64,000 nucleotides of DNA, from the NCBI GenBank assembly GCA_965235115.1, contig OZ249436.1, forward strand, positions 30,382,001 to 30,446,000. The letters are read 5' to 3'. The stretch is from Laetmonice hystrix (lineage: Eukaryota). Of the stretch, positions 54,833 to 55,846 are shown piece by piece; the stretch's first letter is position 1, and every line of letters begins with the position of its first letter. The translations under genes were made by a program, and so were the position numbers. The notes under the pieces were generated by a model. The model saw only the letters and a program-made list of their open reading frames with translations. It was not told the DNA's origin and did no database searches.

Positions 54833-55846
54833 CTACTCGACCATGAACATGATATTTAACTTCCAGAGTGATTCAAAACGTCTGCCATTAAACTGTTTAC
54901 CTACTGCCATCATGTAGTCGGGCTGGAAATCATACCCTCCTGTGTTCAGAGTAAGAGGCCTCGTCAGTAAGGTTGCCCTACCTTCCAATGGCCAGGGTAG
55001 GTTAACATGATGGCGATGAACTTTAAACATTTGTCCATTTGTACAGTGCCAAACAACACCTTCAACACGTCCTTCACGCGATGCAAACCATTCCAACAAG
55101 TCATTCTTATCAGGCCTTACTCTCGTTCCATCTAACTCAATGCTGCCGTGCTGCACAAGGAAATGGACAGGTCGCTTTTTCGAGCCTAATTTATATGGAT
55201 TACCATTAACATTTGTCCCAATCAATTCCATCGTTGAACCTTGCAAGTCTTCCAAAGGTACAACAGTTAATTCCAATTCAAGGTCTGTTTGACACTTTAA
55301 AGGCCGAAGAACGAGTCCAACTCCGATATCCGAATCAATTGTGCTTGCATGCCATACGTGTGAACCATTATGACAGTCTAATGGAACCCAACCCATCGTA
55401 TGTCCTCGACTATCTGGTTGTGGAACGTCACCTATTATAGGCACACCGCCAGCTGCTTTCCAGTTCACAGGAACGTCATTAAAGTCAGTCTCCACGTTCC
55501 ATTCAAAAACACCTTTTCCCACACGTGATCCGGGTGTAAGTTCTCTCTCAAACTTTTTAAAACGACGTCTTGCAGCTTTGGTTGGCTTCCGATCGTGTCT
55601 CACCCACAACCAAGGCTTGCCTTCATAAGTTTCAATTAGGACACATGTCCCGTCAAGCTTTTCTGTTGGACGTGCCATTTGTATATTCACGTCACTTGCA
55701 GACTGTCTAAGCTTATCTGTACTCACAATACGAAACTTGTCATCGCATCTTTTCAATGACCTTTCCGCCAGTACCAACGGTTCAAACACACATTCCATTT
55801 TTGCCTCTACAACATTGTTTATCCTCTTCATGTTGTTCAGTTCCAT
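54833..55846 (-). CDS. RLIG1: RLIG1/C12orf29-family 5'-3' RNA ligase carried by the Polinton (intronless)
   Basis: MKR....KMECVF, PTEKLDGTC (motif I KxDG), PWLWVRHDRKP, WNVETDF..VP..W, PD..GH..GWVP, WH.S, TMELIGTNVNGNPY.LGSKK.P.H.L..HG, WF....G.VEGVVWHC..G..FKVHRHH..L.WP are colinear with human C12orf29 as recalled; start at 55846 or 55831. Confidence 0.92.
   Translation of the reverse strand: MELNNMKRINNVVEAKMECVFEPLVLAERSLKRCDDKFRIVSTDKLRQSASDVNIQMARPTEKLDGTCVLIETYEGKPWLWVRHDRKPTKAARRRFKKFERELTPGSRVGKGVFEWNVETDFNDVPVNWKAAGGVPIIGDVPQPDSRGHTMGWVPLDCHNGSHVWHASTIDSDIGVGLVLRPLKCQTDLELELTVVPLEDLQGSTMELIGTNVNGNPYKLGSKKRPVHFLVQHGSIELDGTRVRPDKNDLLEWFASREGRVEGVVWHCTNGQMFKVHRHHVNLPWPLEGRATLLTRPLTLNTGGYDFQPDYMMAVGKQFNGRRFESLWKLNIMFMVE

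Follow-up and report, generated by a model that had tools for sequence, protein, structure and literature searches.

A host-derived RLIG1-type RNA ligase as an accessory gene exchanged among Polintons in the genome of Laetmonice hystrix

A Polinton integrated in the genome of Laetmonice hystrix carries, beside its right terminal inverted repeat (TIR), an intact gene for an RNA ligase of the RLIG1/C12orf29 family. It is very probable, taking the three parts together, that this gene was captured from the host lineage, is maintained by selection and has spread laterally between Polinton backbones. The element lies in a window of 64,000 nucleotides (contig OZ249436.1, positions 30,382,001 to 30,446,000 of the forward strand), which is the whole stretch of DNA analysed and to which all window coordinates refer. 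Capture of a host RNA ligase, its maintenance by selection and its trade among Polintons have apparently not been described so far, and the present case comes from one host genome.

The ligase ORF (54833..55846, minus strand) is uninterrupted and encodes 337 aa counted from the first ATG, or 332 aa from the second Met. Pfam RLIG1 (PF17720) matches residues 12–329 with an E-value of 3.1e-102 and 342 bits (cut-off 25), covering model positions 6–320 of 324, and the motifs EKLDG, MELIG, VEGVVW, and FKVH are all present. The catalytic residues were mapped on those important in the Yasminevirus and human enzymes (PMC11494293, PMC9931718); in Yasminevirus RLIG1 the key residues K73, D75, R89, E174, H195, E240, and K253 make up motifs I, Ia, III, IIIa, IV, and V (PMC11494293), and in the Polinton ORF the catalytic residues are K63, D65, R83, E207, H233, E262, and K275. 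All seven are kept in the four aligned Polinton copies (4/4) and in the host gene. The AlphaFold model has a pLDDT of 91.3 and a pTM of 0.89; its ten best PDB matches in Foldseek are all 9c6l/9c6m chains (top E 1.6e-15, TM 0.70–0.73 on the target), the best fold matches among viral models are Yasminevirus and Terrestrivirus proteins, and by sequence the solved structures of relatives are limited to the two Yasminevirus RLIG1 entries. The earlier note had read an RLIG1 with an intact adenylation site from the motifs; the Pfam match and the seven residues bear this out, and membership of the RLIG1 family with a minimal nucleotidyltransferase (NTase) fold is confirmed. Judging from the full conservation of the active site, the protein is in all likelihood an active ATP-dependent enzyme. 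It shares with human RLIG1 the family over its full length, an animal-type sequence, the same catalytic set and a single NTase domain (PMC9931718, PMC11494293), and differs from it in being element-borne, multicopy and faster evolving.

The Polinton spans positions 37851-56726, begins with AGTAGT, ends with ACTACT and is flanked by the duplicated hexamer GCTCTG, located at 37845..37850 on the left and at 56727..56732 on the right; 6 bp is the length of Polinton target-site duplications. The termini correspond to the (AGT)2...(ACT)2 end motif described for these elements (PMC8097293). The left TIR (37851..38683, plus strand), which contains 56/113-bp tandem units, and the right TIR (56007..56726, minus strand) are 97–99% complementary, the left being longer by one 113-bp unit. 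The outer 150 bp of each TIR (37851-38000 and 56577-56726) are near-palindromic, with 90% self-match and repeated TCAAGGTCA motifs. Counted inwards from the right TIR, the ligase comes first among the ORFs, about 160 bp from the inner edge of the repeat, and is followed directly downstream on the minus strand by an A32-like packaging ATPase (53997..54746; Pfam Pox_A32, E 1.3e-5), and then by a retroviral-type integrase with a C-terminal chromodomain (52146..53252; rve E 8e-11, Chromo E 4e-9), a probable minor capsid protein (51743..52165) and a probable major capsid protein (49969..51282). The minor capsid label is our assumption from motif and position (a homolog, 43% identical, has the same position in another element), and the major capsid label is likewise presumed from size and position; the capsid-type ORFs gave no informative Pfam or PHROG match, and their size and position fit and are conserved across elements. 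In particular, the genome contains 79 matches to the major-capsid-type ORF, and pPolB and integrase adjoin many of them. On the plus strand are the pPolB ORF (44986..49431; DNA_pol_B_2, E 3e-46) and two accessory ORFs of 98 and 235 aa (38804..39887), whose homologs adjoin the ligase in other Polinton families of the genome; neither has an informative family match in Pfam or PHROGs, and the 235-aa protein has no usable match in the ESM Atlas. The ligase is therefore, as first described, an unbroken ORF of 332–337 aa inside the TIRs, adjoining the right one and co-oriented with the structural cluster, in that it shares the strand of the ATPase, integrase and capsid-type ORFs, and the observation of the ORF and its element is confirmed as far above chance. 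An assembly artefact is ruled out by the target-site duplication and by two further copies at other sites, where the ligase is 99% identical to that of the window at the protein level; these copies indicate that the window's Polinton family was active recently.

Other parts of the element are less regular. An adenovirus-type protease gave no Pfam match in the element, and a protease-like ORF of another element gave no tblastn match in the window, a search that a highly diverged or spliced form could escape; the protease is thus absent by search (region 49432-49968) while pPolB, integrase, ATPase and capsid-type ORFs are unbroken. Short acidic coding-like blocks between GT...AG intron-like stretches at ~43020-44990 (plus strand), upstream of pPolB, are probably a spliced gene, and the first ~50 codons of the pPolB ORF look intronic. 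A possible captured surface protein is encoded by a 195-aa ORF at 42246-42833 (minus strand); its N-terminus is hydrophobic, as is a segment at the C-terminal end, and it contains an LRR-like stretch that is Cys-capped and weakly matched by Pfam LRR_1. Elsewhere in the window are exons at 6812-8593 (plus strand) of a gene that we take to be polysaccharide/chitin deacetylase-like, an array of ~113-bp units with nested inverted repeats (15375-15766), an intronless 371-aa ORF with an N-terminal membrane anchor and what we take to be a LicD/fukutin-like motif (19793-20908, plus strand), and two paralogous plus-strand ORFs of 130 and 174 aa (58971-59363 and 61716-62240) with a common conserved C-terminal block.

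A search of the 627-Mb genome gave 31 ligase matches that, merged by position, make 22 loci (lower bounds): one host gene and 21 Polinton-linked copies, and not the single copy that the earlier note had named as a possible refutation. For twelve of the 21, one or more core genes resembling those of the window are found no further than 30 kb away, five others neighbour a PC4-like gene of a Polinton arm, and the last four are linked to Polintons by a TIR (L019) or by shared flanks (L010, L013, L015). The ligase occurs in at least three diverged backbones and in derivatives of a fourth. An unbroken ORF of 337–343 aa is found in 6/21 copies, and the other 15 are broken or partial through stops, frameshifts and truncations. 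In 16 elements all of pPolB, capsid, ATPase and integrase have a match within 30 kb; the ligase is carried by seven of these, which makes it an accessory gene; its absence from the other nine, which include close relatives of the carriers, and the broken state of 15/21 copies make it dispensable. This distribution tells against a role in the processing of the element's own RNA, in which the ligase would circularise or rejoin Polinton transcripts for stability, since a needed step should not be absent from 9/16 elements, some closely related to carriers; such a role is improbable, even with the reports that depletion of host RLIG1 lowers herpesvirus circRNA ratios and halves the HSV-1 yield (PMC12000468) and that self-cyclised RNA is formed in vitro (PMC9931718). 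A second Polinton-like family is also abundant, on many contigs of the genome; its polymerase differs (~1180-aa frames), and it has an integrase as well as an ATPase, the latter in 500-640-aa frames; no match to the window's capsid protein was found near it.

The host gene, L012, has no Polinton gene within ~6 kb on either side, an RFT1 exon downstream and a single coding exon; a query of the genome with an annelid RLIG1 ranked this locus first and found no extra intron-split locus, and L012 is taken as the host RLIG1 gene. Maximum-likelihood analysis of 24 rows unites the five Polinton lineages in a single clade (100/100) and places this clade with L012 and P0001 (100/99) and then with P0002 (100/99) within animal RLIG1, P0001 and P0002 being assumed to be host genes. 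The nesting of the Polinton clade with the host gene indicates a single capture from this host's lineage, and the capture proposed earlier is upheld by these supports; a 62-row quick-search tree agrees on the origin. Three viral outgroups fall far from the Polinton and host ligases in the 24-row tree, and a giant-virus ligase as the source is ruled out by this phylogeny. Yasminevirus RLIG1 (PDB 9c6l/9c6m) is, as other RLIG1-like ligases of giant viruses and phages, viral and of the same fold; however, it is only ~25% identical to the Polinton ligase and lies far outside the animal clade, so the Polinton gene is an independent, recent capture from an animal host. The grouping of host and P0001 has a support of 94/91 and the alternative grouping of Polinton and host is not rejected (p-AU 0.29); capture before and capture after the split of host and P0001 are both compatible with the trees.

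Homology between host and element is confined to the coding sequence, with 69% nucleotide identity; no host UTR is retained in the Polinton copies, and the two enzymes are 60% identical. The suggestion that the gene was probably retrocopied finds no support in its missing introns, because the host coding sequence is itself a single exon and 27 metagenome loci (L083-L109) are also one continuous match; with an intronless parent gene, DNA-level capture and retroposition are indistinguishable. These 27 contigs carry animal-type RLIG1, split RLIG1 matches occur in the metagenome contigs L111-L113, L116, and L121-L123, and intron loss in RLIG1 looks common in these sequences.

The Polinton ligase is under purifying selection. 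Nei-Gojobori dN/dS was calculated on 12 of the 21 Polinton loci, from the longest single in-frame match of each, with shorter and frameshift-split copies omitted. The values are 0.20–0.47 in 57/57 between-lineage pairs, which are not independent of each other, with bootstrap upper bounds all ≤0.71, and three-point branch estimates are 0.23–0.47 across all five Polinton lineages; the check for neutral evolution proposed at the outset has thus come out on the side of constraint. Among 110 homologs, 71 columns are at least 95% conserved; 64 of these are unchanged in four Polinton copies and the host, and none of the seven changed columns is catalytic. Constraint is tighter in other genes, with dN/dS between families B and C of 0.03–0.07 for the ATPase and 0.14–0.15 for pPolB. 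A neutral passenger, acquired fortuitously beside the TIR and propagated with the element, would suit an accessory gene that is often broken and also the nine within-lineage pairs, which have few changes and wide dN/dS intervals mostly spanning 1, as expected for decay after insertion. This explanation is very improbable and largely refuted by ratios well below 1 in every between-lineage comparison and branch, by a coding sequence conserved while its flanks were replaced and by the occurrence of the gene in several backbones.

The history of the ligase departs from that of its backbones. In the window's family A the ligase has a dS of 0.37 against family B and 0.48 against family C, whereas synonymous sites of ATPase and pPolB are saturated in the same comparisons (pS 0.76–0.84), which indicates that the ligase moved sideways between backbones. 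The pattern is reversed between B and C, where dS is 0.70 for the ligase, 0.20–0.26 for the ATPase and ~0.40 for pPolB. In C6-C7, a close pair, dS is similar across the three genes (0.055, 0.124, and 0.066), so rate differences do not account for the discordance. The ATPase beside the ligase at L018 shares 98% identity with the ATPase of an element that lacks the ligase, and its comparison with family A is saturated. In seven further copies the ligase comes after an arm made up of Oncoid-like, CARD-PC4 and PC4 ORFs. Elsewhere this arm, at 90–97% identity, leads into protease-like and capsid genes, and the polymerase fragments of the family concerned failed to align with the polymerase of the window; ligase-bearing and ligase-less arms match up to a point within the protease-like ORF, just short of the ligase. 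In comparisons of different families, nucleotide homology is lost within ~10–35 nt of the start and stop codons of the ligase. The simplest reading is that an ORF-sized ligase cassette is exchanged among Polinton backbones, to which gene conversion among integrated copies could contribute; this lateral spread extends the earlier note.

The arm just mentioned is the left arm of another Polinton family, present at L156:3652-5438 (G000:C5, ~34.688-34.690 Mb) and at L008, L015, L017, L154, and L157, and encodes a CARD-PC4 fusion (Pfam CARD E 3e-9, PC4 E 1e-12), a second PC4 protein and a Cys/His-rich Oncoid-like ORF; the CARD of the fusion possibly serves as a decoy in host death or immune signalling. 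The placement of one family's ligase behind these probable host-modulating genes raises an explanation in which the ligase benefits the element indirectly, either by raising the RLIG1 dose of germline or somatic cells under stress or by luring away, as a decoy, the partners of host RLIG1. RLIG1 knockout cells are reported to be ROS-sensitive, and the stem branch of the Polinton clade is long (0.29 versus 0.08 for the host), with a variable loop reshaped in the alignment relative to its human RLIG1 counterpart; in human RLIG1 this loop may be regulatory (PMC11494293), and a regulatory loop has thus possibly been reshaped. Nevertheless, a mere decoy would have no need of the seven catalytic residues that every lineage retains, and most integrated copies are decaying, with no sign of domestication at a fixed locus, so that we consider this explanation unlikely.

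For the function of the ligase, the likeliest role, advanced tentatively by analogy and at somewhat less than even probability, is the resealing of RNA cut by host nucleases or by stress. In this account one Polinton lineage took up the single-exon RLIG1 coding sequence of the host once, as the phylogeny shows, recombination spread it between backbones, as the dS discordance shows, and purifying selection retains it as an optional accessory gene. Very probably K63 is adenylated and the enzyme joins the 5'-phosphate to the 3'-OH of single-stranded RNA in an ATP-dependent manner, like human and Yasminevirus RLIG1; in cells with an active element it would reseal broken tRNA, rRNA or element mRNA and counter a translation shut-off driven by nucleases or stress, as T4 Rnl1 does. 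The likeness to the Rnl1-Pnk tRNA repair of phage T4 is one of working, through the predicted ATP-dependent 5'-P/3'-OH joining and the mobile genome; the T4 ligase belongs to a different family, and the Polinton has no found kinase or phosphatase partner. Loss of RLIG1 is also reported to accelerate the loss of 28S rRNA under oxidative stress, whereas the intact RLIG1 of the host itself, the dispensability of the Polinton gene and its weaker constraint relative to the core genes tell against the repair role. Many antiviral RNases leave 2',3'-cyclic-phosphate/5'-OH ends. Human RLIG1 does not join such ends unaided, nor DNA or nicks (PMC11494293, PMC9931718), and a DNA-ligase role in element replication is rejected on the latter property.

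The word module, used at first, goes too far, as no polynucleotide kinase or phosphatase was found in 13 ORFs of the element scanned with Pfam or in nine scanned with PHROGs, the spliced region ~43000-44970 lying outside both scans; Yasminevirus, in contrast, encodes a Pnk-like protein and its own tRNAs. The ligase would then need host help or substrates with the right ends, that is, breaks that are already 5'-P/3'-OH or enzymes of the CLP1/ANGEL2 type borrowed from the host. The need for right-ended substrates motivates an anti-silencing explanation in which the ligase reseals transcripts sliced by PIWI/Argonaute, or dimerises, circularises or 5'-adenylates siRNA and piRNA precursors before their loading and methylation. 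Slicer, Dicer and Zucchini products carry 5'-P/3'-OH ends, exactly the RLIG1 substrate, which would explain the missing healing partner, and integrated elements of invertebrates are held in check chiefly by small-RNA silencing, which fits the spread of the ligase among unrelated backbones. On the other hand, slicer products are as a rule rapidly passed on and broken down, and the 3' end of mature piRNAs bears a 2'-O-methyl group, both of which tell against it. In vitro, human RLIG1 joins a 19-mer into dimers and yields cyclised RNA and AppRNA (PMC11494293, PMC9931718), in agreement with this explanation; against it, RLIG1 goes unmentioned in the titles and opening abstract lines of the literature found on the question. 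Overall it has a low probability, and the same holds for its wider form, a suppressor of small-RNA silencing that acts on PIWI/Argonaute, Dicer and Zucchini products with 5'-P/3'-OH ends and is traded as a counter-defence cassette.

Host-related genes are known as cargo of Polintons/Mavericks (adintoviruses), including PLA2X, gasdermin-like, Oncoid and Bcl2/IAP genes (PMC8502044); terminal accessory regions of the kind in which the ligase sits are described (PMC8097293), and the exchange of pPolB between Polintons (10.1101/2023.08.22.554363) resembles that of the ligase. In the available portions of these three papers an RNA-repair enzyme is not among the cargo. Full-text searches gave no paper that pairs C12orf29 with Polinton or RLIG1 with Maverick, neither term occurs in the title or abstract of the matches for Polinton and 'RNA ligase', and 'ligase' is absent from the accessible main text of Polinton and endogenous-virus papers, whose supplements might list such ORFs, subscription journals and Repbase being outside reach. 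The novelty first claimed appears to stand for the Polinton cargo and falls for the idea of counter-defence by a viral RLIG1, since viral homologs and a T4-like proposal are already published (PMC11494293); in the same way, RLIG1 is found in animals and is not restricted to them, with viral and bacterial homologs known from that paper. In the protein database the closest relative of the ligase is no nearer than 61%. IMG/VR gave no match to a single-protein query and 34 loci at 24–41% identity to an alignment query, none with a match to 11 other Polinton ORFs of the window, and none of 70 RLIG1 loci in metagenomes, most on contigs of only 1–8 kb, has a Polinton ORF match. A Polinton-linked RLIG1 elsewhere, as looked for on the earlier suggestion, was therefore not seen in these collections; as they hold few animal genomes, they only weakly suggest that the cargo is restricted to one genome. 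On one AT-rich viral contig (L049:8226-12591) RLIG1 is flanked by a class II tRNA synthetase on one side and, on the other, by a fusion of a P-loop kinase with an Rnl2-type RNA ligase (Pfam AAA_33 and RNA_ligase), a gene set that is an apparent RNA-repair cluster.

The natural substrates of RLIG1 are largely unknown and little is known of Polinton activity in animal cells. Capture, selection and trading of the gene indicate that the joining of 5'-P/3'-OH RNA benefits a virus-like element in an animal, and the finding points to an RNA-cutting defence against Polintons. The host and element enzymes, at their level of identity, are a matched set for the comparison of substrates; if the anti-silencing explanation were true, the Polinton ligase would represent a new class of RNAi suppressor and would give a direct handle on the natural substrates of RLIG1.
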